This document shows positions 1 through 13,298 of a DNA stretch of 32,000 nt, one piece after another. The position numbers were made by a program, and so were the translations under genes. Position 1 is the stretch's first letter. Each line of letters begins with the position of its first letter. Source of the stretch: Bacillus subtilis subsp. subtilis str. 168. GTDB lineage: Bacteria > Bacillota > Bacilli > Bacillales > Bacillaceae. The notes beneath the pieces were generated by a model, which worked only from the letters and a program-made list of their open reading frames with translations, made no database searches and was not told where the DNA came from. The DNA lies in contig NC_000964.3 in assembly GCF_000009045.1 (NCBI RefSeq), positions 4,170,001 to 4,202,000 of the forward strand, given 5' to 3'.

Positions 1-44
1 TGGTATTTAAAATTTGAATGGTTTTTCTATCAGGAGATCATGCT

Positions 45-1352
45 ATGACAGAGGAGGTTTTCATCATGAGTCAAGAGCGCGTGAAACGGCCTGGGCATAC
101 CAGATGGTACATATCTTCGTTACTTAGCGGCATTATTATTCTTAATTATTTTGACCGAGTGGCCATCTCGGTAGCGGCCCCTGCGATACAAGATTCGTTT
201 CACCTTACTGCAACTGAACTCGGCATCGTGTTTTCCATTTACACCTATTCCTATACACTGATGCAGCTGCCTGTCGGAAGTTTGCTGGACCGTTTTGGGG
301 TCGCATGGGTCACGAGGGTTGGAATGACAATATGGAGCTTTTTAACGATCCTTCTTGCTTTTTTGCAAGGAAAATTGCTGTTGTATCTGTTCCGGTTTCT
401 CATTGGGCTGACGAGCGCCTCTGCGTTCCCTGCTGCCTCTAAAGCAACCGCTCTCTGGTTTCCTCCAAGTGAGCGGGGATTGGCAAACTCACTGTTCGAT
501 TCGGCCGCCAAGTTTTCAAATGTAATCGGCGCGCCATTGGTCGCCTTTCTTGTCACAACATTTGACTGGCGTGTCGCTTTTTTGACGATTGGATGCATCA
601 ATGTGCTGTTTACGATCTTTTTCTGGCAGTATTATGAACAGCCTGAACGGCACAAACGCATTTCTAAAAGTGAACTAAACTATATTCAAAAACACAATGC
701 CATTACAACAGAGCAAATCCCTTACAAAACGGGCCCGCTTTTAAAAAAGCTTTTCACCAATCGAAAAGTATGGGGCTTAATGATCGGATTTACAGGGTAC
801 GGGTATACATTCAACCTGCTGCTCACCTGGCTTCCGACTTTCTTTAAACATACATACGGTATGGATCTCATGTCGTCCGGTTTATTTACGGCAGTGCCGT
901 GGCTGATCTCAACCATTTCCGGAATTGCCGTCGGCGGCTGGCTCGTCGATTATTTTATTAAGAAAGGCTATCCTAATACCAAGGTGTACCGAACCGTAAT
1001 CATAGTCGGAATGAGCTTTGGCTTTTTCTTTTTAGGATCCATTCTGACGAACAATATTACCGTAGCCATTATTTGCATTTCCATCGGACTCGCCGGAATT
1101 TCCGCAACCGCTCCGGTCGGCTGGTCCATCTCCGCAGAACTCGCGCCGATCGGTTCCGTATCCATGCTGAGCTCCATGGTGAATCTCGCAAACAACCTGT
1201 TCGGAGGCATTATTGCTGCGTCACTGACAGGGTATTTGTTTGATGTGACAGGCTCCTTTACCCTCAGCTTTCTGGTAGCTGGTTTTGTGCTGTTGCTGGG
1301 ATTGGTTTTTTATGTGTTTGTATTAGGGGATGTAAAACGAATTAAACTATAG
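45..1352 (+). CDS. yybO: MFS transporter, anion:cation symporter (hexuronate/galactonate-like) subfamily
   Basis: ORF 18-1352. ATG 45 follows GGAG (33-36); an alternative ATG 66 follows GAGGAGG (51-57). Multi-TM protein with motifs GSLLDRFG and LWFPPSERG typical of ACS-type MFS carriers. Confidence 0.9.
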   Translation: MTEEVFIMSQERVKRPGHTRWYISSLLSGIIILNYFDRVAISVAAPAIQDSFHLTATELGIVFSIYTYSYTLMQLPVGSLLDRFGVAWVTRVGMTIWSFLTILLAFLQGKLLLYLFRFLIGLTSASAFPAASKATALWFPPSERGLANSLFDSAAKFSNVIGAPLVAFLVTTFDWRVAFLTIGCINVLFTIFFWQYYEQPERHKRISKSELNYIQKHNAITTEQIPYKTGPLLKKLFTNRKVWGLMIGFTGYGYTFNLLLTWLPTFFKHTYGMDLMSSGLFTAVPWLISTISGIAVGGWLVDYFIKKGYPNTKVYRTVIIVGMSFGFFFLGSILTNNITVAIICISIGLAGISATAPVGWSISAELAPIGSVSMLSSMVNLANNLFGGIIAASLTGYLFDVTGSFTLSFLVAGFVLLLGLVFYVFVLGDVKRIKL

Positions 1353-1357
1353 AACAT

Positions 1358-1392
1358 GAAAAAGAGAGCTGCCAGTTGGCAGCTCTCCCTTT
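1358..1392. terminator. Hairpin terminator between yybO and the convergent minus-strand remnant
   Basis: 10-bp stem GAGAGCTGCC (1364-1373) / GGCAGCTCTC (1378-1387), loop AGTT. A-run on the left gives a T-run on the minus strand; the T-tract on the plus strand is weaker. Confidence 0.6.
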
Positions 1393-1395
1393 ACA

Positions 1396-1635
1396 TCAAA
1401 GAATCGGCCCGTCCCCATTTACCTTCTCCTCGTCCTGTTCCTCTATATCAAGCCCCGAAGCTAGCATTTCCTGCTCTATCTGTTCGAGCACCTGCTCGTT
1501 TTTTCCTTGAAGACCACCTTCATAATGAAAAGCATCCTGTGTGCCGTTTTCCTCTATTGTCGCTAAAATATCGTGGATATCATTATGGTCTCCTGAAATG
1601 GAGCCGAATCCCTGGTTTTGTTTTTTATAATTCAC
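1396..1635 (-). pseudogene. Orphan 3' end of an unknown gene (acidic C-terminal tail); probably a truncated remnant
   Basis: 79-codon ORF starting at GTG with no SD. Its frame stays open upstream to ~1680, where homology to yybH begins. The stop abuts a good minus-strand terminator. No family recognised. Confidence 0.35.
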
Positions 1636-1677
1636 AAAACCGCTGGGGAGGTTGTTTCCGAGGTTTACACATGATGC

Positions 1678-1793
1678 GCTCCGAGTAGTAATTCATCAGT
1701 GTATCAAAATCTTCATTTTGGATTGCCACATCACATGCAGAGATGATGTCTTTCAATTGCTGTTCCAAATGAATTCCCCTAATCATCATGATT
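1678..1793 (-). pseudogene. Duplicate of the yybH 5' end (RBS plus first ~35 codons), truncated
   Basis: 1689-1808 aligns to 8067-8186 with ~4 mismatches in ~120 bp. It translates [37 protein letters not shown], then diverges and stops (...RFCEL*). Confidence 0.75.
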
Positions 1794-1853
1794 GGATATA
1801 TTATACAATGTTTGACACGTAGGGATCCTTTTCATTTTTGTTTTTACGGTTTC

Positions 1854-2090
1854 GCTGGTCCATTTCCGCAGAGCTGGCGCCGATCGGTTCCGTATCCATG
1901 CTGAGCTCCATGGTAAATCTGGCAAACAACCTGTTCGAAGGCATTATTGCGGCTTCATTGACGGGGTATTTTGTTTGATGTGACAAGGCTCCTTTACGCT
2001 CAGCTTTCTGGTAGCCAGTTTTGTTCTGCTGCTTGGATTGGTTTTTTACGTGTTTGTCTTAGGGGATGTAAAACGAATTAAGCGGGAATA
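1854..2090 (+). pseudogene. Decayed copy 2 of the yybO 3' end
   Basis: Aligns to 1120-1352 at roughly 88-90% identity by eye, with small insertions that break the frame (TATTTTGTTTG, GACAAGGCTCC). Ends ...AAACGAATTAAGCGGGAATAA. Confidence 0.85.
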
Positions 2091-2096
2091 AAGAGT

Positions 2097-2135
2097 GCTT
2101 GTAGAGAAAACGTTGTTCTTTCTACAAGCTTTTTA
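2097..2135 (+). terminator. Rho-independent terminator after yybO copy 2
   Basis: Stem GCTTGTAGA (2097-2105) / TCTACAAGC (2121-2129) followed by TTTTT (2130-2134). Confidence 0.6.
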
Positions 2136-2166
2136 GTTTTGTGCTGTTTTTCAAGATATTCAGCTG

Positions 2167-2785
2167 TCATAAAAAGAAAATGAGCTCCCACATACCGGCT
2201 AGGTATGTGGCGTTCTTCTTCATGTTCTGGCATGCAGCTGTGAGGAGGATTTGTTTGCTCACCCCCTGAACCTGCGATAGCTAAGCCCGTGCAGTTGTTT
2301 TGAACCTACAAAGCTTCGTTCTATTTTTTCTTTTCTTTTTTTAGAGATTTCCTGAAATAGAAAAGCAATCTTTTCTAACCTTTTCTTTATGGTTTTGCCA
2401 TACATACCGAGTAACGACTTTCTGGCGTTTCGTTGATTTTGTGTAATATTCTCAAACATATTTCAGGATTTGATTTATATGACCGATAGTCTTTGCGATC
2501 AATTGTTGAGTACGTAAGTGTATGCTGATTCAACAAATGTATCTGTATTGTTCACTTTATAATGAAATTTCCATTTTGGAAGCAAACCCCTGACTGGGTG
2601 ATAACGTCTATGTGCGATGGCACCAAAAACTTGGAGGTCAAATAGTCCTTTAGAGATGAGAGTTGTTAAGTAGCCGGAATCTAGAGCGACGGCTTCTACT
2701 TGAAAATCAAATCATGCAATTTAGTGATCCAATCGGTCAAGGTAGGGCTTGGAACAGAATCATGGACTTTTCTGGAGTTGCAAAC
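2167..2785 (-). mobile_element. Degenerate C-terminal half of a DDE transposase (IS1182/IS5-superfamily type), multiple frameshifts and stops
   Basis: Minus-strand translations in shifting frames: VHDSVPSPTLTDWITKLHDLIFK; FQVEAVALDSGYLTTLISKGLFDLQVFGAIAHRRYHPVRGLLPKWKFHYK; KKRKEKIERSFVGSKQLHGLSYRRFRG; VSKQILLTAACQNMKKNATYLAGMWELIFFL*. The D(A/S)GY and ...HG.RY.R.RG...LLTA.CQN.KK tail is the hallmark I recall for this transposase group. Confidence 0.7.
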
Positions 2786-2889
2786 TATTAATCGTCCTCA
2801 TTAAATTTATAATAAAAATATTCTCAATTGAGCAAATCGCCCACCCTTTTTCCTTTATAACATAAAATCCAATACTATCAATAAAATTC

Positions 2890-2918
2890 TTTACAGGTTA
2901 TTACAGTTAAGATATAAT
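2890..2918 (+). promoter_or_regulatory. Candidate sigmaA promoter upstream of the yybN operon
   Basis: TTTACA (2890-2895), 17-nt spacer, TATAAT (2913-2918). This would give a ~190-nt leader before the yybN ATG. Confidence 0.5.
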
Positions 2919-3113
2919 ATAGTTAATCTTTTACGTAAAAGGAGGTTTTTATTACTTGTGTTGAAGTTTTAAATAGGAGTAACTCCATCTCCCCATTACG
3001 GTCTTCATTTAATTTCATCCTGAGTTTTATTTAGTTAGATATAAAAACGAAAATTTCACATTATTTTTAACTAACCGATAGTATAAAATATATATTGAAA
3101 GGATTGTAAAATT

Positions 3114-3551
3114 ATGAATAAATTCCTGAAGAGCAATTTCCGTTTCCTTCTTGCGGCTGCTTTAGGCATATCATTACTTGCTAGTAGTAATTTTATAAAA
3201 GCCAGCAATGATAACTATAAATTCCATTTACTTGTACCTTATGGCTATGGTAATGCCTATTCAAATGATGCATTTAGACAGACCACTCATACAGATAATC
3301 CTTGGAAAGTAAATTTACAGAAATCGGCAGAAGGTAAAGGTACAATCATGACATTTTGGTTGATTAACACAGGGAATAGTAAAATTCCAAAAGCTTCTAA
3401 AATACATAACGTAAAACAAGGAAGCGGAGCTCATTATTATCATGCAAATAGCCAGGGAAGCCATACATATGTAGCCTTAGCAGTTGAAAACAACAATTAC
3501 AGTGCAAGTTCTTATGGTATAGATGGTGTATGGGATGAAGAAACTTGGTAA
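3114..3551 (+). CDS. yybN: Small secreted protein of unknown function (Sec signal peptide, no lipobox)
   Basis: N-terminus [30 protein letters not shown]|SN (basic n-region, hydrophobic core, AXA-like site). Mature part is rich in N/S/Y/H/G/W. AAAGGA lies 10 nt upstream of the ATG. Confidence 0.85.
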
Positions 3552-3603
3552 ACAAGAACCTTCTAAAAACGTTGGCACCTTTTAGCCACGCGAAAAAATT
3601 TAG

Positions 3604-3640
3604 AATGATAATCTTTTTATAAGATTATCATTTTTATTTA
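3604..3640 (+). terminator. AT-rich hairpin terminator or attenuator after yybN
   Basis: 12-bp stem AATGATAATCTT (3604-3615) / AAGATTATCATT (3621-3632) followed by TTTTTATTT. Confidence 0.55.
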
Positions 3641-3664
3641 TTCTATTAAGAATTGAGTGAGAAC

Positions 3665-4420
3665 ATGGAAAGTCATATTTATCGCATTATCAAAAATAAA
3701 TTAACTATAATAATATTTACTATAATCATATTAATTCCTTGTGTTGATATATCACTATTGTTAATGACTAACACAGAATACCATCCTGCATATGCGTTTT
3801 TCCTTTCTGGCACTTCCGTAGGGCATGCTTCACAAATGATCCTATTATGGTTTCTTCCGCTTTATTTTTTGTTACTATGTGCTGACGATTCTATACAAGA
3901 TTATAAAACAGGATATCATTACATTCTTATAAGCAAAGTTGGCAGAAAAAAATATTGTTTGGAAAAAATATTTACCTCTTTTATCATTTCATTTTTGACA
4001 ATGTTTTTGTCACTAATATTAAACTTTTTATTGGTTCAGGTTTTCTTTTTTAAAGGTACATTTAAAAATGACTTAGACCAAATTAAATTCCCTGATAACA
4101 GCCTTTATACTTTTAGTATGGCCCATCCTTATATAGCAATTGTGTTATTTTCTATTATTTGTTGTATTATGTCTGGATTTGTTGGAGCACTTGGTTCAAG
4201 CCTCAGTTTACTTTTTCGTGATAAGAAGTATGCCTACCCAGCAAGTTTTTTTATTTGGTTCGTACTTATACTAAAAAACAAATCATTAATGTTTTTATTC
4301 CAACCGTTTACAGAATACGGTTATAATGTACTTCTCCCTATCCTATGTTTGTCTATCTTTATTTTTCTAATAATAATTTCTAGTATTGTTTTATATGAGG
4401 CAAAATACAATGAAAATTAA
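3665..4420 (+). CDS. yybM: Polytopic membrane protein, ABC-2 / lantibiotic-immunity-like permease subunit
   Basis: ORF 3653-4420; first ATG at 3665. About 6 predicted TM segments. Its end overlaps the yybL start. Confidence 0.85.
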
Positions 4421-5120
4421 AAGACTACTATTAATTTTATGTTTACTACTATTTTTAGTTACTTTATGGTTCAACCAGAACCACACTTATCTTGGAAAGA
4501 ATTCTATCGCGTCATTACTATATATGAATAATAGTACATTCGGATATAGTTCAATATTTGCATATACCTTGTTTTATATTGTCCCGTTTCTTATGTTACT
4601 TAGTAACTTTTTTCATTCAGAAAACCCCTACAAAGTAATGAGGATGGTTAAGCGTAAAAATTACTACAAGTCTAAAATTATGGAGATTGGGTTTGTTTCT
4701 TTACTTTTTTCTTCAATACATACTGTTATTAATATTACGTGTACACATATTTTCTTTAGTAAAAACTTGTTGGTCGAAGCAAACTTTTTATCAATTTGTT
4801 TATTAAACATGATTAGTTTAGTGTTTTTCTACTTATCAGTAGGTATTATGTTTAGACTTACATACGATCTGTTTAATTCAGTAGCATTAGCAATTTTTAT
4901 TGTGTATATAATTTTAGATAGCTTGTATTTCGGCGTTAAATTATTACTTCCTAATGGATATTGGGAACCCTTTAGAGACTTGGCTATATTCACAAATATG
5001 CTCAATAGATATTGGTCAACTTCAAATCTTATAATAGTTTATATTAGACAGATAATAATAGTTTTTATTTTTTATTTAGTTGGATCTTCAATTTTTTTGA
5101 ATAAGGATTATAAAAAATGA
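4410..5120 (+). CDS. yybL: Polytopic membrane protein, ABC-2-like permease subunit
   Basis: ORF 4386-5120. ATG 4410 is preceded by GAGG (4397-4400) and overlaps the yybM stop (4418-4420). Multi-TM. Confidence 0.85.
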
Positions 5121-5872
5121 GGATTAAAGGCTTTTTCATAACTTTAGTTGCGATAATATTTCAGGCGTCATTATCGAGTTATAATAATAATAAAAATGTC
5201 TTTCCTTTTTTAGATGGCATACCAATAAGCACCTCGGGTCATTATGAGTATCAAAATATTTTATTGTGGTTTGTACCTATTGTTTCCCTAAGTTTTTGTT
5301 TCTCTGGGAGTATTAGAGATACATACATTTCGTATGAGCAATTAAAGTTAGTAAGAGAACATAGTAGAGTTAAATGGGTAACATCTCAATTCTTAATAAT
5401 TACAGTTGTACTTTTAATCTTTACTTTATCTCAGATTGCTATATTTTATATTTATTCACTTGTATCTCTTCATAACCTTGATATTAATTCCGTTATCAAT
5501 AAAAGATTTGTTATGATGACACTCATGTATTATCTAACCTTACTTAACTTATTTAGTTTTCAATTATTTATGGAGCTTTATTATAAATCTCAAATAGCAC
5601 AATTAAATATAAGCGTTTATATTATTTTTTCGTTAATTTTAGCAAAGAAGTTAGTGCAATTAAATTCTCCGAAAGTTATTCACTACTTTTTAATTCCAAA
5701 CTACAGTAATGGATTAAGAACTGGGTTAAGCTATTATTCCCAATCTGGAACTGCTATTATTGAACCATTATTAGGTTTGTTTATTATAATCATTTTACAG
5801 ATTTCAATAGTTATATTATCTGTCTTAAAGTTCAAAAAAATAGATATGCTAAAAAGTGAGGGCTTACAATGA
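5117..5872 (+). CDS. yybK: Polytopic membrane protein, ABC-2-like permease subunit
   Basis: ATGA start/stop overlap with yybL (5117-5120). Multi-TM. Confidence 0.85.
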
Positions 5873-6525
5873 TTGAGGTATTAAACCTAACAAAAAAAAT
5901 TAAAAAGACTACAGTTTTAGATAATATCTCTTATACATTTGAAAAAGGAACAATTTATGGACTATTTGGGAGTAATGGTTCTGGAAAGACCATGCTACTT
6001 CGTGCATTATCCGGGTTAATAGTCCCTACTGAAGGGAGTATAACTATTAAAGGTGAACAATTACATAAAGATATCTCTTTTCCTAAAAGTGTAGGATTAA
6101 TTATAGAAAATATGCAGTTACTTCCTCAGTATGATGCTTTTACTAACCTTAAAATTTTGTCAAAAATTAAAAAGATCGCATCAGATAATGATATATTAGA
6201 TTCTATTAGTAGAGTTGGTTTGGAAAATTTTAATAGTGTAAAGGTTAGTAAATTCTCGTTAGGAATGAAACAACGATTAAATATTGCACAGGCTATTTTT
6301 GAAAAACCTGATATATTGCTACTTGATGAACCAACAAATGCGATTGATGAAAAAGGAGTTGCATTTGTTCATGACATTCTTTTACAAGAGAAAAAAAGGG
6401 GAGCTACCATTATTATTACTAGTCATCACAAGGAAGATATTATATCTTTATGTGACATTGCATTAGAAATGAATCATGGACGTCTAGAAACTTCAGAAAA
6501 AGTAATATATAAGAAAGATAGTTAG
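5869..6525 (+). CDS. yybJ: ABC transporter ATP-binding protein
   Basis: Walker A GSNGSGKT, signature FSLGMKQR, Walker B ILLLDEP, H-loop TSHH. ATGA overlap with yybK; GAGGG RBS. Confidence 0.95.
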   Translation: MIEVLNLTKKIKKTTVLDNISYTFEKGTIYGLFGSNGSGKTMLLRALSGLIVPTEGSITIKGEQLHKDISFPKSVGLIIENMQLLPQYDAFTNLKILSKIKKIASDNDILDSISRVGLENFNSVKVSKFSLGMKQRLNIAQAIFEKPDILLLDEPTNAIDEKGVAFVHDILLQEKKRGATIIITSHHKEDIISLCDIALEMNHGRLETSEKVIYKKDS

Positions 6526-6680
6526 TTTAAACTGGCTATTTCTTATCCAATGATAGACTGCAGACAAGTTCAACTGCTGTAATGCTAGAAAATCCAATGA
6601 AATGCTGATAATTGCGAAGAGATATGATCAGTCAGAAAACAAATCTTAAAAAGAAAAAGTAAATTCATCAATATTTCTAA

Positions 6681-6854
6681 TAAACCTGGCAAACAACCTG
6701 TTCGGAGGCATTATAGCTACTTCACTGACGGGATATTTATTTGATGTGACAGGCTCCTTACGCTCAGCTTTCTGGTGCCGGTTTTGTGTTGTTGCTGGGA
6801 TTGGTTTTTTATGTGTTTGTATTAGGGGATGTAAAACGAATTAAACTGGAATAA
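6681..6854 (+). pseudogene. Decayed copy 3 of the yybO 3' end
   Basis: Aligns to ~1181-1352 and to 1914-2090. Two single-base deletions break the frame. Ends AAACGAATTAAACTGGAATAA, sharing the GAATAAAGAGTGCTTG tail with copy 2. Confidence 0.85.
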
Positions 6855-6884
6855 AGAGTGCTTGCTGAAAAGCACTCTTTTTCT
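6853..6884. terminator. Bidirectional terminator (yybO copy 3 / yybI)
   Basis: 11-bp stem AAAGAGTGCTT (6853-6863) / AAGCACTCTTT (6870-6880), with T-runs on both strands. Confidence 0.7.
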
Positions 6885-6899
6885 GCATCGAAAGAATAC

Positions 6900-7688
6900 T
6901 TAAGATAAGTCACTCCCAAAAATCGTAACAGTCTGACGGTTAAACATAAACCTCTGCCCGTTCCATTTTAATACGGTTTGAACATATCCCAATGAGTCGG
7001 CGTTATACCTTCCCGCTATCCGCTGGTACGCCAATAATTCGTATACGCCGTCTCTGTCAAAATCAACCGGATACAAGCCCGATAAAGGATTCACCCATCC
7101 TTCTATCGGCATTTTTAACACACCTTGGCTGTTATAAATCTCATTCAAATATTCCCTGCCCTTGTAAGTAAGGTCGAGGATATACGTTTCGTTTTGCTGA
7201 TGACTGATAACGCTCGCTTTATATTGATTTTGATACCTCACACTGTACTTTAATTCATCATTCAATACATCTGAATTGAAAATTCGCCGGAACTGCCTGT
7301 TTAGATAGGCAAACACATATGCATAAATAGCACCGCCGCTTCCCCCTGTGTCCATTACTACTGCCACATCCTCAATCTTGTCGCCTGTCATATCCCCCAG
7401 AAAAAGTGACGGATTGTATCCCATATTGTTTTGAAGCTGAATCCGCTGCTCCTGATGGGTTCTGCCATCACGGATCACCAATGTGATATTTCTCCATAAC
7501 GGGCTGCCGGGCATTTGATTTCCAGTTAGAAAGACCTCGTCAATAACGCCGTCTCCCGTTACATCGCCGCGGGTAGATACAATGATTGCACGTGAGGAGA
7601 CAGGCTGCCGAAATACGTATGGATGTTGAACAAGTCCTCTGCCTTCATAAAACCAATAAGGAGCCATTCTGATGTCATACACATTCAA
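6900..7688 (-). CDS. yybI: Protein with FG-GAP/VCBS-like Asp-Gly repeats (recalled as a spore-coat-associated protein)
   Basis: ORF 6900-7697. TTG at 7688 lies 6 nt after GGAAGGTG. Repeats DVTGDGVIDEVFL, GDMTGDKIEDVAVV, DFDRDGVYELLAY. Confidence 0.85.
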   Translation of the reverse strand: MNVYDIRMAPYWFYEGRGLVQHPYVFRQPVSSRAIIVSTRGDVTGDGVIDEVFLTGNQMPGSPLWRNITLVIRDGRTHQEQRIQLQNNMGYNPSLFLGDMTGDKIEDVAVVMDTGGSGGAIYAYVFAYLNRQFRRIFNSDVLNDELKYSVRYQNQYKASVISHQQNETYILDLTYKGREYLNEIYNSQGVLKMPIEGWVNPLSGLYPVDFDRDGVYELLAYQRIAGRYNADSLGYVQTVLKWNGQRFMFNRQTVTIFGSDLS

Positions 7689-7755
7689 TTGTGTCACCTT
7701 CCCTAATCAGCTGAATGAATCATTATATGCAGGAATGGCACATCAAAGACATATC

Positions 7756-8145
7756 TTACACACCAATTAAATCCGTACCATATGAATTATCAATTACACA
7801 AAGCCACTCGCCTTGCGCATTCTTTTTAAATACATAGGTCGCCCTTCTTTCCATCGCATACTCGGAGTCCTTTTTATCCGAATCAAGCAGTGTCTGAGAA
7901 AGAACGAGTACCGTGTCACCTGCTTCCAACAGGATCATTTTCCCTTGTGTCGGGACAATATGATGATTGAAATAGTTCGCAATCGTGATAAACGCTTTTT
8001 TGATTTCTTCCTTGCCTCGCGCGATCATGCCCGGCTTCACAACTAAAACGGCATCTTCCGAATAATAATTCATCAGTGTATCAAAATCTTCATTTTGGAT
8101 TGCCAAATCACACGCAGAGATGATGTCTTTCAATTGCTGTTCCAA
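7756..8145 (-). CDS. yybH: NTF2-like (SnoaL/DUF4440-type) small protein
   Basis: ORF 7756-8166. TTG at 8145 is preceded by GGGGGA. About 130 aa alpha+beta cone-type sequence. Family call is from memory. Confidence 0.8.
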
Positions 8146-8290
8146 ATGAATTCCCCCAATCATCATGATTGGATATATTATACATCGCTAGACCACTGAA
8201 ACCTTGAAAACAAAATGAAAAGTATCCTTTTTTCCTATATAATCAAATAGATATATTTAACAAAGTACCCAAGTGAAGGGGTGAACATTA

Positions 8291-9130
8291 TTGTCTGCGG
8301 AAGTAACGTTACATGACAATATACATTATGATTTAAGTGCGGATTGCCAGCACTGTTTTGGCCTGTGCTGTGTCGCCTTGCCTTATGCGAAGTCGGCAGA
8401 TTTTGCTTTTGATAAAGACGGGGGCACGCCTTGCCGCAACTTACAATCAAACTATCAATGTTCTATACATAAAGATCTCAGAGAAAAAGGATTTCGAGGC
8501 TGCTCTGCATATGAATGCTTTGGCGCCGGCCAAAAAGTATCCCAAATCACTTATGAGGGAAAGGATTGGCGAAACAGCCCCGAAACGGCCAACCAGATGT
8601 TTGACGTTTTTCCTATCATGCAGCAGCTGCACGAAATGCTCTGGTATTTACATGAAGCTCTTTCTATAGATATAGCCAAGCCGATTCATTCTGAACTGAG
8701 AACCACTTTCGAAAAAATAGAAAGGCTCACCAGACTCAGCAAAGAACGCTTGCTGACACTGCAGGTGGACGAGCATCGAGCTGAGGTCAATGAATGGCTG
8801 TTAAAAACAAGTGAACTGGTGCGTGCCCAAGCCCGCCATCCAAAACTCCCGAAAAAGGTCAGCCGGGGAAGTGTCCTGATCGGCGCGAAACTGAAAGGGC
8901 TTGATCTGCGAGGAGCAAATCTAAGAGGGGCGCTGCTCATAGCCGCCGATCTGAGAAATGCCGATTTGAGAATGACAGACTTTATCGGTGCAGATATGAG
9001 AGACGCTGATCTCAGCGGCGCCGACCTGACCGGGAGCATCTTTTTGACACAGGCACAGGTGAACGCCGCCAACGGCGATTCGAATACAAAGCTGCCGCTG
9101 TCTGTACGAACCCCTGCCCATTGGAAATAA
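8291..9130 (+). CDS. yybG: Pentapeptide-repeat protein with Cys-rich N-terminal domain
   Basis: TTG start after AAGGGGTGA. N-terminus CQHCFGLCCVALPY...PCRNL...CSIH...GCSAYECFGAG. C-terminus GANLRGALLIAADLRNADLRMTDFIGADMRDADLSGADLTGS (A(D/N)LXX repeats). Confidence 0.9.
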   Translation: MSAEVTLHDNIHYDLSADCQHCFGLCCVALPYAKSADFAFDKDGGTPCRNLQSNYQCSIHKDLREKGFRGCSAYECFGAGQKVSQITYEGKDWRNSPETANQMFDVFPIMQQLHEMLWYLHEALSIDIAKPIHSELRTTFEKIERLTRLSKERLLTLQVDEHRAEVNEWLLKTSELVRAQARHPKLPKKVSRGSVLIGAKLKGLDLRGANLRGALLIAADLRNADLRMTDFIGADMRDADLSGADLTGSIFLTQAQVNAANGDSNTKLPLSVRTPAHWK

Positions 9131-9160
9131 AAAAGGACCCGCTAACGGTCCTTTTTTACT
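9128..9160. terminator. Bidirectional terminator between the convergent genes yybG and yybF
   Basis: AAAAAAGGACC / GGTCCTTTTTT stem around the loop CGCTAAC. Confidence 0.7.
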
Positions 9161-9162
9161 GA

Positions 9163-10377
9163 TCAATTCAATCCTTTTTCGTTCCTCTTATCCGGCATTT
9201 TCACACTTCTTGCCAAGTATCCCGACAGCCATAACGCAACCAGCAGCATGAAGGTGATCATACCGACGACGCCCAGCCAGTGAAAACCAGACCAGAATAG
9301 CCCTCCGATTGTTCCGAAAACACTTGAACCGGCGTAATAAAAGAACAAATACAGCGATGAAGCCTGTGCTTTGTTGTGAAGGGCTCTCCTGCCCACCCAG
9401 CTGCTGGCAACTGAATGCCCTCCGAAAAAACCGAATGTAAAGAGGGCAATCCCCAGAATTTTCACTGCCAGCATATTGTTTATCGTAAATAACGCACCTG
9501 CAATGACGATGAAAATATTCATCACCAATATTTTCGGATAGCCATACCGATCAACCATTCTTCCAATGAAAGACGAGCTGAAAATGCCTACAATCATCAC
9601 AATAAAGATCCAGCTGGAAAATGCTTTATTAAGCGAATACGGCGGGCCCAACAGCACATACACAATGTAATTAAACAAGGCAACATTGCTTCCAAGCAGC
9701 AAAAAACCAATGAGAAACAAGCTGAATAGTTTACGGTCCCTCAAGTGGCCGATCAGAGACATTCCCAATTTCCCGAGCTTCAATTTTCTTGGCGTAAAAT
9801 GCCTGGATGGCGGCAAATTTATAAAAAATATAACACTAGCAATCAAACTAATGACACCAATTGTCCCCATCGCCATATGCCAATTCAAGTACTCGCTCAG
9901 GAGCCCGGAAACGATCCTTCCGAAAACGGCGCCGATTGCATTTCCGCTGATATATAGCCCCATCGCTGATCCAAGACTTCCGGGTTCAATTTCTTCCCCA
10001 AGATAAGCCATCGCAATCGACGGAAGGCCTGCGAGCGCAACGCCTTGAATGGTTCTCAATACGAGCAGTGTATGAAAGCTCGGACTAAAGGCCGATGCCA
10101 GACAGAGAACCGATGCGGCCAGCATGGAAATACCCATAATAGGCTTGCGTCCCCACACCTCGGATAATGAACCAAAGACAAGCATGCTCACAGCTAACAG
10201 CATTGTGGTAACAGATAAAGAAAGACTCGCCGCAGTAGGCGTTACATGAAATTCCCGCGTGAATTCCTCCATGAGCGGCTGTACGCAATATAGAATCGCA
10301 AATGTATTGAAACCCGCAGCGAAGAAAGCAAACGTAATTTTTCGAAAAACCGGTGTGCCTTTTCGAATGTATGTCAT
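9163..10377 (-). CDS. yybF: MFS transporter (YnfM-like)
   Basis: 12-TM profile; MFS motif A GSLSEVWGRKPIM. Confidence 0.9.
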   Translation of the reverse strand: MTYIRKGTPVFRKITFAFFAAGFNTFAILYCVQPLMEEFTREFHVTPTAASLSLSVTTMLLAVSMLVFGSLSEVWGRKPIMGISMLAASVLCLASAFSPSFHTLLVLRTIQGVALAGLPSIAMAYLGEEIEPGSLGSAMGLYISGNAIGAVFGRIVSGLLSEYLNWHMAMGTIGVISLIASVIFFINLPPSRHFTPRKLKLGKLGMSLIGHLRDRKLFSLFLIGFLLLGSNVALFNYIVYVLLGPPYSLNKAFSSWIFIVMIVGIFSSSFIGRMVDRYGYPKILVMNIFIVIAGALFTINNMLAVKILGIALFTFGFFGGHSVASSWVGRRALHNKAQASSLYLFFYYAGSSVFGTIGGLFWSGFHWLGVVGMITFMLLVALWLSGYLARSVKMPDKRNEKGLN

Positions 10378-10485
10378 CGGGACTTTATCGGTCCCTCATC
10401 ATGTTGTGGAGCACTGCCATTCATAAACAATCATCCTTTATTTCTTACGAATTCAAACATCCTCGAGTCTGTTTATATTATTATC

Positions 10486-10513
10486 TTAGCACCGTTGATA
10501 TATGTTGTATAAT
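10486..10513 (+). promoter_or_regulatory. Candidate sigmaA promoter for yybE-yybD
   Basis: TTAGCA (10486-10491), 16-nt spacer, TATAAT (10508-10513), in the divergent yybF/yybE intergenic region. Confidence 0.4.
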
Positions 10514-10563
10514 GCATATAAAATATCCTTTTCATGCTTATATGTAATAAGGAGAGATGATAA

Positions 10564-11442
10564 TTGGAATGGGAACAACTTGAATATTTTCAAACACTGG
10601 CCCGGATGCAGCACGTCACGAAAGCCGCAAAAAGCCTCTCCATCACACAGCCTGCACTTTCACGCTCTATCGCCAGGCTGGAAAATCATTTGGGCGTCCC
10701 GCTATTTGACAGGCAAGGACGATCCATCAGCTTAAATCAATACGGACACATTTTTTTACGACGGGTTCAGGCGATGATGAAGGAGTATACCGAAGGAAAA
10801 GAAGAAATCCAAGCCTTATTAAAGCCAGACCAAGGCGTAGTCTCTCTCGGTTTTTTACATACATTAGGCACCACGCTCGTGCCCGATCTCATCGGCTCCT
10901 TTCAGCAGGAATACCCCAACATTTCCTTCCAGCTGAAGCAAAACCACTCTTATTGGCTGCTTGAACGATTAAAATCCGGAGATCTGGACCTCTGTCTCCT
11001 CGCTTCGATTAAGCCTGAAAATCCGATCCAATGGATCAAGCTGTGGAGTGAAGAACTCTTTGTATTTGTGCCAAATGATCACCCATTAGCCAGTCGCGAA
11101 AGCATTACCCTGAATGAGATTGCCGGGGAGCGTTTTATTTTATTGAAAAAGGGCTATGCGCTTCGGATGACGGTCGATGAGCTGTTTGAGAAGGCCAATA
11201 TACAGCCGAACATTATGTTTGAAGGAGAAGAAGCAACTACTGCCGCAGGTTTTGTGGCAGCCGGTCTGGGCATATCTATTCTCCCAGACCTGAAAGGCTT
11301 AGACCAAAGCAAAATCACCAAAATCCGCGTCAGCTGGCCGGAATGTCAGCGTGTCATAGGAATTGCCTGGATAAAAGGCAGGTTTTTATCACCGGTTGCT
11401 GAGACCTTTAAACAATATGTGATCAGCCATTTTTCTGAGTAG
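10564..11442 (+). CDS. yybE: LysR-type transcriptional regulator
   Basis: TTG start 7 nt after AAGGAGAG. HTH LEYFQTLARMQHVTKAAKSLSITQPALSRSIARLE. Divergent from MFS gene yybF, the classic LysR layout. Confidence 0.9.
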   Translation: MEWEQLEYFQTLARMQHVTKAAKSLSITQPALSRSIARLENHLGVPLFDRQGRSISLNQYGHIFLRRVQAMMKEYTEGKEEIQALLKPDQGVVSLGFLHTLGTTLVPDLIGSFQQEYPNISFQLKQNHSYWLLERLKSGDLDLCLLASIKPENPIQWIKLWSEELFVFVPNDHPLASRESITLNEIAGERFILLKKGYALRMTVDELFEKANIQPNIMFEGEEATTAAGFVAAGLGISILPDLKGLDQSKITKIRVSWPECQRVIGIAWIKGRFLSPVAETFKQYVISHFSE

Positions 11443-11455
11443 GAAGGATTCAAGC

Positions 11456-11899
11456 ATGAATGTCAAAAAAATCACGTCAGAACAGGATTTACATACAGCG
11501 TTTGAAATCAGAAAGGCAGTATTTGTAGAGGAACAAGGCTGTCCCATTTCGGATGAATTCGATGAGTTCGATACACTCCACGGTGACTGCCAGCACATCC
11601 TGGCTTATCATCAGAATGTACCTGTTGGCACTGCACGTGTCCGTATCGTTGGCCACACGGGGAAACTGGAACGAATCTGCATTCTGAAGTCTTACCGCAA
11701 ATTCGGTTTGGGAAAAGTGATCGTCGATGCATTAGAACGTATTGTAAAAGAACAAGGCATTTCTGCCTTCAAACTGCACGGCCAGACACAGGCGGCAGGC
11801 TTTTATGAAAAGCTCGGCTATCGGACTGCATCAGAAGAATTTATGCTGGACGGCATTCCGCATGTGCTGATGACAAAACAAGACGATTCTGCGCTATAG
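11456..11899 (+). CDS. yybD: GNAT N-acetyltransferase
   Basis: Acetyl-CoA motif ICILKSYRKFGLGKVIV. About 65% aa identity by eye to the product of 14017-14463. Confidence 0.9.
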   Translation: MNVKKITSEQDLHTAFEIRKAVFVEEQGCPISDEFDEFDTLHGDCQHILAYHQNVPVGTARVRIVGHTGKLERICILKSYRKFGLGKVIVDALERIVKEQGISAFKLHGQTQAAGFYEKLGYRTASEEFMLDGIPHVLMTKQDDSAL

Positions 11900-11981
11900 A
11901 TTGTTCACAAATTTGTCACTTATGAGCATGAACGGTTCATTGGTATACTAATCACCGATTATGGAGAGAAGGAATGATTGT

Positions 11982-12461
11982 ATGCCAGCAAATAAAAAAG
12001 AAGGCCTTATATTTGGCGTGATGATGTGCTTTGGAATGGTTTGCGTCATGTCGATTTACAATGCCATCATCAACCGAGCCATCTACGATTTTTCACTGAT
12101 GACCGTTTTTGAAATGGTCATCGGTTTTATGATCGCCCTCCTGTTAGATTTACTGTTAGTGGGCCCCCTCGCCAAGAAGATTGCATTCCGCATGCCGTTC
12201 GACAAGACTAAAAAAATTTATGTCATCCTTGCCATGTCAACTTGTATGGTGATTGGCATGGTACTTTGTATGTCTGTGTTCGGTTTAGTGACAGCGGTTC
12301 TAGCAAATGGGCTGAACGGGGACAGCCTCTTCAGTGCTTATCTTATGATTGTGTTGAAAAATTTCATCCTGGCCTATCCGTTGCAATTACTGATTATGGG
12401 CCCATTAGTCAGAGGAGTTTTCATGAAATTTGTAAAACCAAAGCTCACAGCCGCAATTTAA
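11982..12461 (+). CDS. yybC: Small integral membrane protein (DUF2798-like)
   Basis: ORF 11961-12461. ATG 11982 follows GAGAGAAGGAA. 4 TM segments. Confidence 0.8.
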   Translation: MPANKKEGLIFGVMMCFGMVCVMSIYNAIINRAIYDFSLMTVFEMVIGFMIALLLDLLLVGPLAKKIAFRMPFDKTKKIYVILAMSTCMVIGMVLCMSVFGLVTAVLANGLNGDSLFSAYLMIVLKNFILAYPLQLLIMGPLVRGVFMKFVKPKLTAAI

Positions 12462-12635: not shown

Positions 12636-13298
12636 TTAATCCCTATACCTTACCACATAGTTTTTATACAATTCTTCGTTATAAAGGATTTCTTCGCCAT
12701 GTGAAGAGCAAATGAGCGTTGGTTTGATTTGATCTATGATTGAGCCGCTGTCGATGTTCTCATTTATATCAACACTGAATCTTCTTATAGGTGGGTGTAA
12801 ATCCTCCTTACTTGTGATAAAAAGGTCGCCCGTCAATAGCGTACGATCGATTTTATGATAATACACAACATGCCCCGGCGAATGGCCAGGTGTTAAATAG
12901 TATTTCAGAGGCAGATGAGCAAGCGTTTGCTCCGTCAGCGGCTGTACAATATGGGCTACCCCTGTGTTCTCCACTTCATTTTTGTTCGGATATGGCTCTT
13001 CCCCATTGATGTACTTTAGTTCTTTCTGGTGCGCAAAAATCGGAATATCAAATCTCTCTAACCATTTTGATGCACCCCCGATATGATCACTGTGGCCATG
13101 GGTAAGCAAAATGGCTTTTGGATTGCCGATCGCTAACGCTGCCCTAATTTGAGCATCAGCAAAACGTTCTATTCCCGTATCAACAATATAAACATCATCA
13201 CCATCTTTGATAAACCAGGTATGAACCGGAATACGAAGAGGCACATCAAGCTCAAATTCACATTGAAAGACATGTTCTGATAGTTGTCTCAAATTCAC
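12636..13298 (-). CDS. yybB: Metallo-beta-lactamase-fold hydrolase
   Basis: ORF 12636-13370. GTG 13298 lies 9 nt after GGAG. HxHxDH motif LTHGHSDHIGG. Confidence 0.9.
   Translation of the reverse strand: MNLRQLSEHVFQCEFELDVPLRIPVHTWFIKDGDDVYIVDTGIERFADAQIRAALAIGNPKAILLTHGHSDHIGGASKWLERFDIPIFAHQKELKYINGEEPYPNKNEVENTGVAHIVQPLTEQTLAHLPLKYYLTPGHSPGHVVYYHKIDRTLLTGDLFITSKEDLHPPIRRFSVDINENIDSGSIIDQIKPTLICSSHGEEILYNEELYKNYVVRYRD

Follow-up and report, generated by a model that had tools for sequence, protein, structure and literature searches.

The yybN operon of Bacillus subtilis: a mobile cassette, as judged from sequence, for a secreted DUF2712 protein and a predicted ABC-2-type transporter

Results

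A secreted protein encoded together with its own ABC transporter

We analysed a window of 32,000 nucleotides (nt) from the chromosome of Bacillus subtilis subsp. subtilis str. 168 (NC_000964.3, positions 4,170,001 to 4,202,000) covering yybO to yybF, the left part of which holds an AT-rich island with the genes yybN, yybM, yybL, yybK and yybJ (Table 1; unless a locus is named, positions are those of the window). Judged by comparison with related loci, the five genes are a self-contained, functional and mobile cassette, in which a small Sec-secreted protein, YybN, is inherited together with a predicted ATP-binding cassette (ABC) transporter of the ABC-2 type. Our tentative reading is that YybN is a secreted effector and YybJKLM the dedicated complex by which the producer would protect itself. 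The island, its horizontal origin and its silencing by Rok are already published; what is new here is the conservation of a five-to-six-gene cassette across Bacillota, the predicted folds of YybN and YybM, the pattern of selection and the insertion architecture with its gene-end repeats.

A scan for open reading frames (ORFs) placed the five genes in tandem on the + strand between 3114 and 6525, with start/stop overlaps for yybM/yybL (4410/4420), yybL/yybK (5117/5120) and yybK/yybJ (5869/5872). The overlaps and the common direction of the genes agreed with those given in an earlier reading made from the sequence alone (hereafter the sequence-only reading). The earliest in-frame starts of yybM and yybL are TTG 3653 and 4386, respectively; YybM of relatives has 251 amino acids (aa).

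YybN is a Sec-secreted protein with a predicted jelly-roll fold

YybN begins with the n, h and c regions of a signal peptide, in which Ala30 is invariant at position -1 (IKA/S cleavage). A SipW/TasA-type signal was considered and rejected, NCBIfam giving no match. The protein is devoid of Cys and ends in WDEETW, and its mature part of 115 aa (12.9 kDa, pI 7.0) is rich in N, S, G, Y and H. The signal peptide, the missing lipobox Cys and the length and end of the mature part had all been read correctly from the sequence. That YybN could be placed in no family proved mistaken, since it matches Pfam DUF2712 (PF10916) with 134.4 bits against a cut-off of 22 (E 3.4e-39).

A search among 1.84 billion representative sequences gave 255 DUF2712 clusters at 50% identity, and in the best 150 of these 255 nearly all proteins are single-domain and 130-165 aa long. 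No lipobox, transmembrane anchor or wall-sorting signal was found in the aligned YybN homologues. Invariant positions in the alignment include R55, T57, N62, W64, K65, E73, G74 and N126-N128, and a near-invariant G138-x-W-D-E-E-T motif lies near the C-terminus, where it is mostly terminal; a few metagenomic members carry a short extension beyond WDEE.

The AlphaFold2 model of YybN (pLDDT 82.8) predicted an eight-strand beta sandwich or jelly roll, with the GxWDEE motif on the last strand followed by a tail of lower confidence. Foldseek matched this model to generic jelly rolls only (TM-score 0.4-0.55), foremost PirA, YPM, C-CPE (Clostridium perfringens enterotoxin C-terminal domain) and carbohydrate-binding modules, but also GOLD domains, capsid and tail-fibre domains and Ena2A spore-appendage subunits. 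A profile search of the Protein Data Bank (PDB) with YybN detected no sequence relative.

The matches to carbohydrate-binding modules and Ena2A raised the question of whether YybN is instead a structural or surface protein of the spore, the matrix or, lectin-like, the wall, which would bind a glycolipid or polymer exported by the transporter. ABC-2 transporters commonly export glycopolymers. Spores of a yybN deletion strain were misshapen in a published screen, with distortions and cavities, and YybL has been detected in spore proteomics. However, the screen that gave the spore phenotype included no complementation, the matches to the fold are of a generic kind (TM-score 0.34-0.5), and genera that do not sporulate, namely Vagococcus, Leuconostoc, Oenococcus and Listeria, also have the cassette. 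Nor does the cassette have a linked gene for a glycosyltransferase or for polymer synthesis. We consider a surface role of this kind improbable.

YybJ and three different membrane subunits form a predicted ABC-2-type complex

YybJ matches PF00005 (E 2e-35) and carries a Walker A motif (GSNGSGKT), a signature-like SLGMKQR and a Walker B motif with catalytic Glu (LLLDEP). Its top NCBIfam family is the galliderm_ABC lantibiotic-protection ATPase (TIGR03740), at 153.6 bits against a cut-off of 309.75. YybL belongs to the WxPxxD family of membrane proteins (NCBIfam NF035952, 262 bits against a cut-off of 70), with the motif WEPFRD in the loop between transmembrane segments 5 and 6 and a weak match to ABC2_membrane_4. 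YybK is a member of Pfam DUF2705 (PF10920, 255.5 bits, E 4.5e-76), for which YybM is marginal (23.0 bits against a cut-off of 22.4). The three permeases had been called paralogs in the sequence-only reading; homology was borne out, but only as a remote one, with hhalign probabilities of 95% for YybL-YybK, 79% for YybM-YybL and 44% for YybM-YybK.

The closest solved fold to the YybM model (pLDDT 89.8) is NosY (PDB 7o0z, 7o12 and 7znq; TM-score 0.57-0.60, probability 1.0, E 0.02), followed weakly by LptF/LptG and Wzm. The ATPase motifs of YybJ and the six-segment ABC-2 fold of the YybM model are those of an ABC-2, or type V, ABC exporter. A published AlphaFold model of YybJ2KL likewise presented the complex as a type V ABC exporter, with no function assigned; YybM was not part of it, and its authors remarked that the gap separating the two transmembrane domains (TMDs) was implausible. 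In a PADLOC search for anti-phage systems, YybJ gave generic ATPase matches only, and the non-ATPase components gave none.

These features bear on an alternative in which YybN, rather than being a toxin, would serve the transporter as its extracytoplasmic partner and dock on conserved outer loops of YybM and YybL. ATP would then drive the transfer of a ligand, lipid-linked or hydrophobic, to YybN, or an exogenous antimicrobial would be taken from YybN, and the cassette would be a resistance or envelope-maintenance module comparable to LanFEG with LanI, NosDFY or LptB2FG-LptC/A. YybM is the best conserved of the membrane subunits, with near-invariant polar residues in the loops predicted to be extracellular (H44, P45, G57, H58 and Q61; Q217, P218, F219, E221 and Y222), and WEPFRD of YybL lies in the equivalent loop. 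The outer loops of the permeases are very short, so that the complex has no extracellular domain of its own. A partner role is also consistent with the likeness of YybM to NosY, an ABC-2 TMD that carries the periplasmic NosD (LptF/LptG being weak matches), although at an E of only 0.02 this likeness is that of the generic ABC-2 fold. The presence of three TMDs, and the gap left when YybM is omitted from the model, likewise speak for this alternative, as do the high conservation of YybN, its mostly acidic homologues and the position of GxWDEE on the last strand. On the other side, YybN is unanchored throughout its family and would be lost to the medium unless bound very tightly, and there is no sensor or regulator, though these are usual in resistance modules. 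We regard a partner role as the chief alternative, a serious possibility if a somewhat doubtful one.

The cassette resembles known systems only by analogy

The sequence-only reading had likened the locus to lactococcin-972-type and LanFEG-like systems. Tests for membership failed for YybN, YybJ and the permeases alike. No Lactococcin_972 domain was found in YybN by Pfam at E up to 1, and YybJ scored 112 bits against TIGR03608 (L_ocin_972_ABC), below the cut-off of 255. In NCBIfam, YybM, YybL and YybK, each of ~250 aa, matched neither the large bacteriocin-associated membrane protein nor the LanE and LanG families, and no lanthipeptide biosynthetic ORF was found in 1-9500. Membership in either group was rejected, family cut-offs not being reached; lactococcin-972 and LanFEG systems are therefore analogies, not classifications. 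What stands of the earlier proposal is that a secreted effector with its immunity genes is a plausible analogy for the layout, as distinct from a demonstrated identity.

The analogies are nevertheless instructive. The lactococcin 972 locus of Lactococcus lactis plasmid pBL1 is published as encoding a Sec-dependent, unmodified bacteriocin and a putative ABC immunity transporter. As in the yybN cassette, a small, Sec-exported, Cys-free, unmodified all-beta sandwich is encoded beside an ABC ATPase and a membrane partner, and both loci are mobile and have no modification enzyme or dedicated exporter. They differ in that YybN is a 115-aa eight-strand jelly roll and Lcn972 a 66-aa six-strand sandwich, in that three ABC-2 subunits of ~250 aa stand in place of one large membrane protein, and in that most YybN homologues are acidic. 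LanFEG systems, with the LanI lipoprotein or the LanH accessory protein, also combine one ATPase with several ABC-2 membrane subunits; the yybN cassette, in contrast, has three polytopic subunits, and YybN is soluble and not lipid-anchored.

NosDFY(L) shares with the cassette an ABC-2 core, with NosY nearest to the YybM model, and a separately exported beta-rich partner. However, YybN, a predicted jelly roll, is homologous neither to the large beta-helix NosD nor to the copper lipoprotein NosL, and no Nos family was matched in Pfam or NCBIfam. Nos is a Gram-negative respiratory assembly system, and the likeness is at the level of fold only. Finally, sdpABC, sunA-sunT, sboA-alb and yydF-J of B. 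subtilis are, like the yybN operon, Rok-regulated, AT-rich and devoted to extracellular products; these are characterised peptides with processing or modification genes, whereas the yybN operon has no such genes and encodes a folded protein of 13 kDa.

YybN and the transporter are strictly co-inherited in a mobile unit

To determine how widely the cassette occurs, we surveyed loci (numbered L001 onwards) seeded with YybN. Relatives were found in Alkalibacillus, Vagococcus, Leuconostoc, Oenococcus, Sporolactobacillus, Terribacillus, Niallia, Siminovitchia, Eubacterium, Anaerostipes, Lachnospiraceae, Clostridium chrysemydis, Erysipelotrichia and Listeria and on two Priestia plasmids. In every YybN locus with enough flanking sequence, three permeases and the ATPase were adjacent and on the same strand. 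The converse search with YybM matched the same three records of the plasmid collection, and N was present in all three genomic look-ups and in 8/8 metagenomic loci with intact M and upstream flank. No viral contig encoded a YybM relative. Two 'Listeria phage' records and a 2.9-Mb Listeria 'plasmid', all unannotated, were not counted as evidence for carriage by phages.

Gene orders are rotations of a single circular order, NMLKJ, MLKJN, LKJNM and JNMLK (loci L001, L008, L014, L016, L017 and L019 versus L002, L015 and L020-L022). Tandem duplication with subsequent trimming or a circular intermediate would both fit these rotations. In other Bacillota the cassette is patchily distributed and adjoins insertion sequence (IS) elements or recombinases at differing chromosomal sites, or sits on plasmids. 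Within the B. subtilis group its location varies: B. subtilis and B. inaquosorum carry it at the yybO site, B. velezensis carries it at a rearranged neighbouring site that lacks yybO, yybI, yybH and yybG, and in B. mojavensis and B. vallismortis it is found elsewhere, next to recombinases. Such a distribution is not that of vertical inheritance with native composition, and together with the AT-richness, the plasmid copies and the published status of the region as Rok-bound, horizontally transferred DNA it upholds the horizontal acquisition proposed in the sequence-only reading.

Many loci of the NMLKJ order carry a sixth gene, X, translationally coupled to the ATPase gene and encoding 203-258 aa (examples in Table 1). 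X has an N-terminal transmembrane anchor and an extracellular domain of ~170 aa with a duplicated GxYxVGxDIxxGxYD-like motif, and it matches the Rv1352/Rv1906c domain of NCBIfam; a PDB profile search with the X family returned nothing. The cassettes of B. subtilis, B. velezensis and Priestia lack it, as does every MLKJN version. In L005 the X position is taken by an LRR_5 lipoprotein.

Loci in which one component has changed are informative about the relation of YybN to the transporter. N is truncated or split beside an intact transporter in L031 and L044, and the reverse was never seen. L046 carries two tandem, diverged DUF2712 genes (3842-4339 and 4380-4796) upstream of M-L-K-J, one of which extends C-terminally beyond WDEE. 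In L050 (853-2863) a LytTR-type response regulator and a kinase-like protein with multiple transmembrane segments precede a distant YybM relative (30% identity); the contig ends short of the remaining cassette genes. A LytTR regulator with a membrane kinase is typical of peptide-signalling and bacteriocin loci.

Strict 1:1 co-occurrence, with N directly upstream of M in 3/4 order rotations, would also be expected if YybN were a partner of the transporter. The anchored X, however, would be the more natural fixed partner, and yet it is dispensable in B. subtilis. In X, which occupies a LanI-like position in the six-gene cassettes, an effector reading would see an assistant in immunity.

The cassette genes are under purifying selection and recombine within the island

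Across 18 cassettes the mean pairwise identity was 0.60 for YybJ, 0.47 for mature YybN, 0.39 for YybM and 0.26 for both YybL and YybK. YybN distances correlated with those of the transporter subunits at r 0.6-0.7, more weakly than the distances among M, L, K and J (0.83-0.94), which tells against a partner role. Against three relatives, the ratio of nonsynonymous to synonymous divergence (dN/dS) was below 1 for all five genes (0.1-0.5 against two of the relatives and 0.06-0.35 against B. velezensis), indicating purifying selection.

Comparison of window 3114-5120 with 9421-11456 of L032, which is also B. subtilis, gave dS values of 0.38 for yybN, 0.40 for yybM and 0.23 for yybL, against 0.03-0.05 in the flanks. 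The divergence values of L032 yybM equal those of L035 (B. inaquosorum), and those of yybN and yybL are close. With dS in N-M-L roughly tenfold higher, this left half was evidently exchanged for a divergent allele, and the comparison indicates a recombination mosaic inside the island.

The operon has a conserved promoter and leader and is expressed

The predicted sigma-A-type promoter and the leader that follows it (Table 1) are conserved in L032 and L035. The leader length of 189 nt, predicted from the position of the promoter, agrees with ncr1471, which has been published as the yybN leader from cDNA sequencing. No Rfam family was found in the leader or anywhere in 1300-7000. A Shine-Dalgarno (SD)-like sequence, AAAAGGAGG, lies at 2937-2945, near where the leader is predicted to begin (~12 nt away) and far from any start codon; it is kept as AAAAGGGGG in relatives and is not followed by a conserved upstream ORF. 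It resembles a 5' mRNA stabiliser of the STAB-SD type, the cryIIIA element.

The yybN operon has been published as a direct target of Rok in an AT-rich region for which horizontal acquisition was already proposed. Rok binding spans more than 5 kb over the operon and represses it along with the antimicrobial operons sdp, sun, sbo and yyd; the operon underlies 'Rok cluster 8', which is also linked to DnaA and was described as 'of unknown function'. The sequence-only reading was thus right to call the island essentially uncharacterised in the sense that no function is assigned, although the operon is known as Rok-silenced. Nothing useful was found in the published literature on DUF2712, DUF2705 or WxPxxD.

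A transposon-borne msfGFP fusion in yybN was recovered by fluorescence-activated cell sorting from exponential cultures in lysogeny broth (LB) and described as 'punctate'. The TnFLXmsfgfp insertion tag maps to 3156-3164, corresponding to codons ~15-17 and thus within the signal peptide. The fusion therefore shows expression and says nothing about the location of mature YybN. We rejected the 'punctate' pattern as evidence of localisation, the fusion being to a truncated signal peptide.

These data also bear on the idea that the island is silenced, decaying foreign DNA that no longer has a function in B. subtilis. Binding and repression by Rok, a transposase relic, rearranged flanks and the missing X would all suit decay. 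However, the five ORFs are intact with dN/dS below 1, the promoter and leader are conserved, and the msfGFP fusion was bright enough for sorting from exponential LB cultures. Purifying selection and evidence of expression largely refute a decaying pseudo-operon, which we regard as very improbable indeed.

The island is bracketed by copies of the yybO 3' end

The island core (2796-6682) has a G+C content of 28.3%, with 26-35% in single genes, compared to 42-47% in flanking genes; in 60-nt lines the values are 15-47% (mean 28%) for the island and 27-65% (mean 45%) for flanking genes, and the wider span 2102-6680 has 29.8%. The AT-rich island described by the sequence-only reading is thus real, but its flanks, put there at 45-55%, measured about 40-50%. 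The island contains neither a regulator nor a modification enzyme, as that reading had said. The whole window has 40.3% G+C, and 41.8% was measured outside the island in 8167-32000, both below the B. subtilis genome average; there may be further low-GC stretches in the window beyond the island.

Repeats of the 3' end of yybO, a gene 99.5% identical to that of L032, do bracket the island, as had been noticed from the sequence, where two copies were counted; the third, the end of the intact gene itself, had been missed (Table 1). Copies 2 and 3 are 88.7% identical over 186 nt, and copy 1 is 91% identical to copy 2 and 92% to copy 3. The same hairpin as that at copy 3 follows yybO in relatives, and this ancestral yybO terminator probably now terminates the yybN operon.

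Copies 1 and 2 are separated by a lineage-specific segment, which contains a terminator-like hairpin at 1359-1392, different from the ancestral one, a minus-strand ORF (1396-1635, 79 aa, acidic) and a copy of the yybH 5' end and its upstream region (1625-1816, minus strand), whose part 1680-1816 matches 8057-8193. In the relatives L032-L035 only the yybH-like part has a counterpart. L032 and L035 have two yybO-end copies compared to three in the window. We infer that the three copies may be traces of two successive insertions at one site.

The transposase relic at the start of the island, as recognised in the sequence-only reading, is genuine, but it lies on the minus strand and is absent from relatives. 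Its stitched minus-strand translation shares 46% identity with annotated transposases of the IS1182 family over 168 aa (E 4e-34); at its position the islands of L032 and L035 hold an unrelated 694-bp segment. The relic is unrelated to the IS1182-type transposase adjoining the cassette in L031. No functional integrase or transposase was found in the island, the degenerate IS1182 relic being the only such element.

In L028 (B. vallismortis) the cassette is part of an insert of ~7.1 kb between 195-nt direct repeats (5967-6161 and 13100-13294) that are 92% identical and correspond to a thioredoxin-like gene (Pfam Thioredox_DsbH) at its 5' end; genes for a serine recombinase, split, are near the insert. 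The architecture of gene-end repeats is thus that of the yybO site, with another target gene. In L038 (B. mojavensis) a 48-nt element reading GGTTATTCGACTTGCCATTGGTGCCATGTC... occurs in seven diverged copies over 2139-12352, which set off small blocks of one or two genes with the cassette among them, an array that looks like the product of repeated integration at one site. The sequence of this element also occurs at the edge of the L028 repeat; it was not found in the window.

Table 1. Features of the yybN island and its surroundings, with examples of gene X in related loci
Feature	Position	Strand	Description
yybO	18-1352	+	Major facilitator superfamily (MFS) transporter; host gene, its 3' end being the insertion target
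yybO 3'-end copy 1	1120-1352	+	Last ~230 nt of intact yybO
Lineage-specific segment	1353-1853		~500 bp, between yybO-end copies 1 and 2
yybO 3'-end copy 2	1854-2101	+	Left island bracket; out of frame through 1-nt indels
IS1182-family transposase relic	~2150-2730	-	C-terminal DDE part; stops and frameshifts
sigma-A-type promoter (predicted)	2890-2918	+	TTTACA-17-TATAAT; 11/12 consensus matches
5' leader	2925-3113	+	~189 nt; follows the predicted promoter
yybN	3114-3551	+	Sec-secreted DUF2712 protein; eight-strand jelly roll (predicted); unanchored
yybM	3665-4420	+	ABC-2-type subunit with six transmembrane segments; closest solved fold NosY (predicted model)
yybL	4410-5120	+	WxPxxD-family membrane subunit
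yybK	5117-5872	+	DUF2705 membrane subunit
yybJ	5869-6525	+	ABC ATPase
yybO 3'-end copy 3	6683-6868	+	Right island bracket; ancestral stop codon context kept
yybO terminator hairpin (ancestral)	6853-6882	+	AAAGAGTGCTT...AAGCACTCTTT; same hairpin after yybO in relatives
X in L002	11434-12060		
X in L027	11254-11874		
X in L028	11833-12453		
X in L030	9848-10459		
X in L038	11366-11992		

Discussion

We propose, tentatively, that the cassette combines a secreted effector with the pump that protects its producer. A mobile, self-contained unit would have entered the 3' end of yybO, and a single sigma-A promoter with its 189-nt leader would drive YybN and the transporter together. YybN would be exported by Sec as an unanchored 13-kDa jelly-roll binding protein, released from the cell, and would diffuse to neighbouring Gram-positive cells to bind a conserved envelope target. 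YybJ and the three different six-segment subunits YybM, YybL and YybK would form an ABC-2 (type V-like) complex that uses ATP to clear YybN, or YybN with its target, from the outside of the producer's own membrane. In many other hosts the sixth, membrane-anchored extracellular protein may assist protection.

An effector role is suggested because YybN is the only product of the cassette that is not part of the transporter and has a jelly roll of the kind found in binding modules, and because the five-gene cassette is the only unit that moves. Subunits of Gram-positive transporters are normally anchored, so a released YybN fits an effector better. Decay that strikes N and spares the transporter (L031, L044), tandem N paralogs (L046) and the regulator and kinase of L050 point in the same direction. 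YybJ is nearest to lantibiotic-protection ATPases and X stands in the position of an immunity lipoprotein. The exchange of the N-M-L allele and the partial coupling of N divergence to the transporter are likewise consistent with an effector and its immunity, as are the co-repression of antimicrobial operons by Rok and the dN/dS values below 1 for all five genes.

Several observations weigh against this proposal. A simple immunity pump does not need three different TMDs. YybN showed no similarity to known toxin or bacteriocin families in Pfam, NCBIfam, PDB or Foldseek searches, and its mature homologues, mostly acidic with pI values of 4.0-9.3, do not resemble typical membrane-active bacteriocins. 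The conservation of mature YybN exceeds that of all three permeases, and its gene-wide dN/dS (0.24, 0.23 and 0.08) carries no arms-race signal; high conservation with mostly acidic homologues also fits a non-toxic partner. No transporter set without N was found in a limited sample, which an obligate partner would explain equally well. Genome-wide knockout libraries of B. subtilis contain single deletions of yybJ, yybK, yybL and yybM, so that loss of 'immunity' is not lethal in laboratory conditions. No killing activity has been attributed to the yybN operon, the reported phenotypes being the altered spore morphology described above and, for yybN deletion, a mild sensitivity to dipyridyl.

It is unlikely, if conceivable, that the cassette is new in kind, either as a machine in which a three-TMD ABC-2 complex loads or unloads an unanchored jelly-roll shuttle, or as a new family of Sec-dependent 13-kDa bacteriocins with a three-subunit immunity complex. 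As a shuttle, YybN would be a soluble carrier like LptA or NosD, but one that lacks an anchor and spreads with a mobile unit.

Although no Gram-positive bacterium has been studied better than B. subtilis 168, its five-gene yybN operon, expressed and under selection, has no assigned function; the same cassette is present in Listeria, lactic acid bacteria and gut Clostridia and on plasmids. At present the cassette is an uncharacterised but tractable system of a model organism, with no surprising mechanism shown so far. If YybN is an effector, it would found a new family of unmodified protein antimicrobials with known immunity genes. If it is a partner of the transporter, the cassette would offer a tractable model of ABC-2 complexes with three membrane subunits that work with an extracellular protein. 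Either reading is directly testable through existing B. subtilis genetics.

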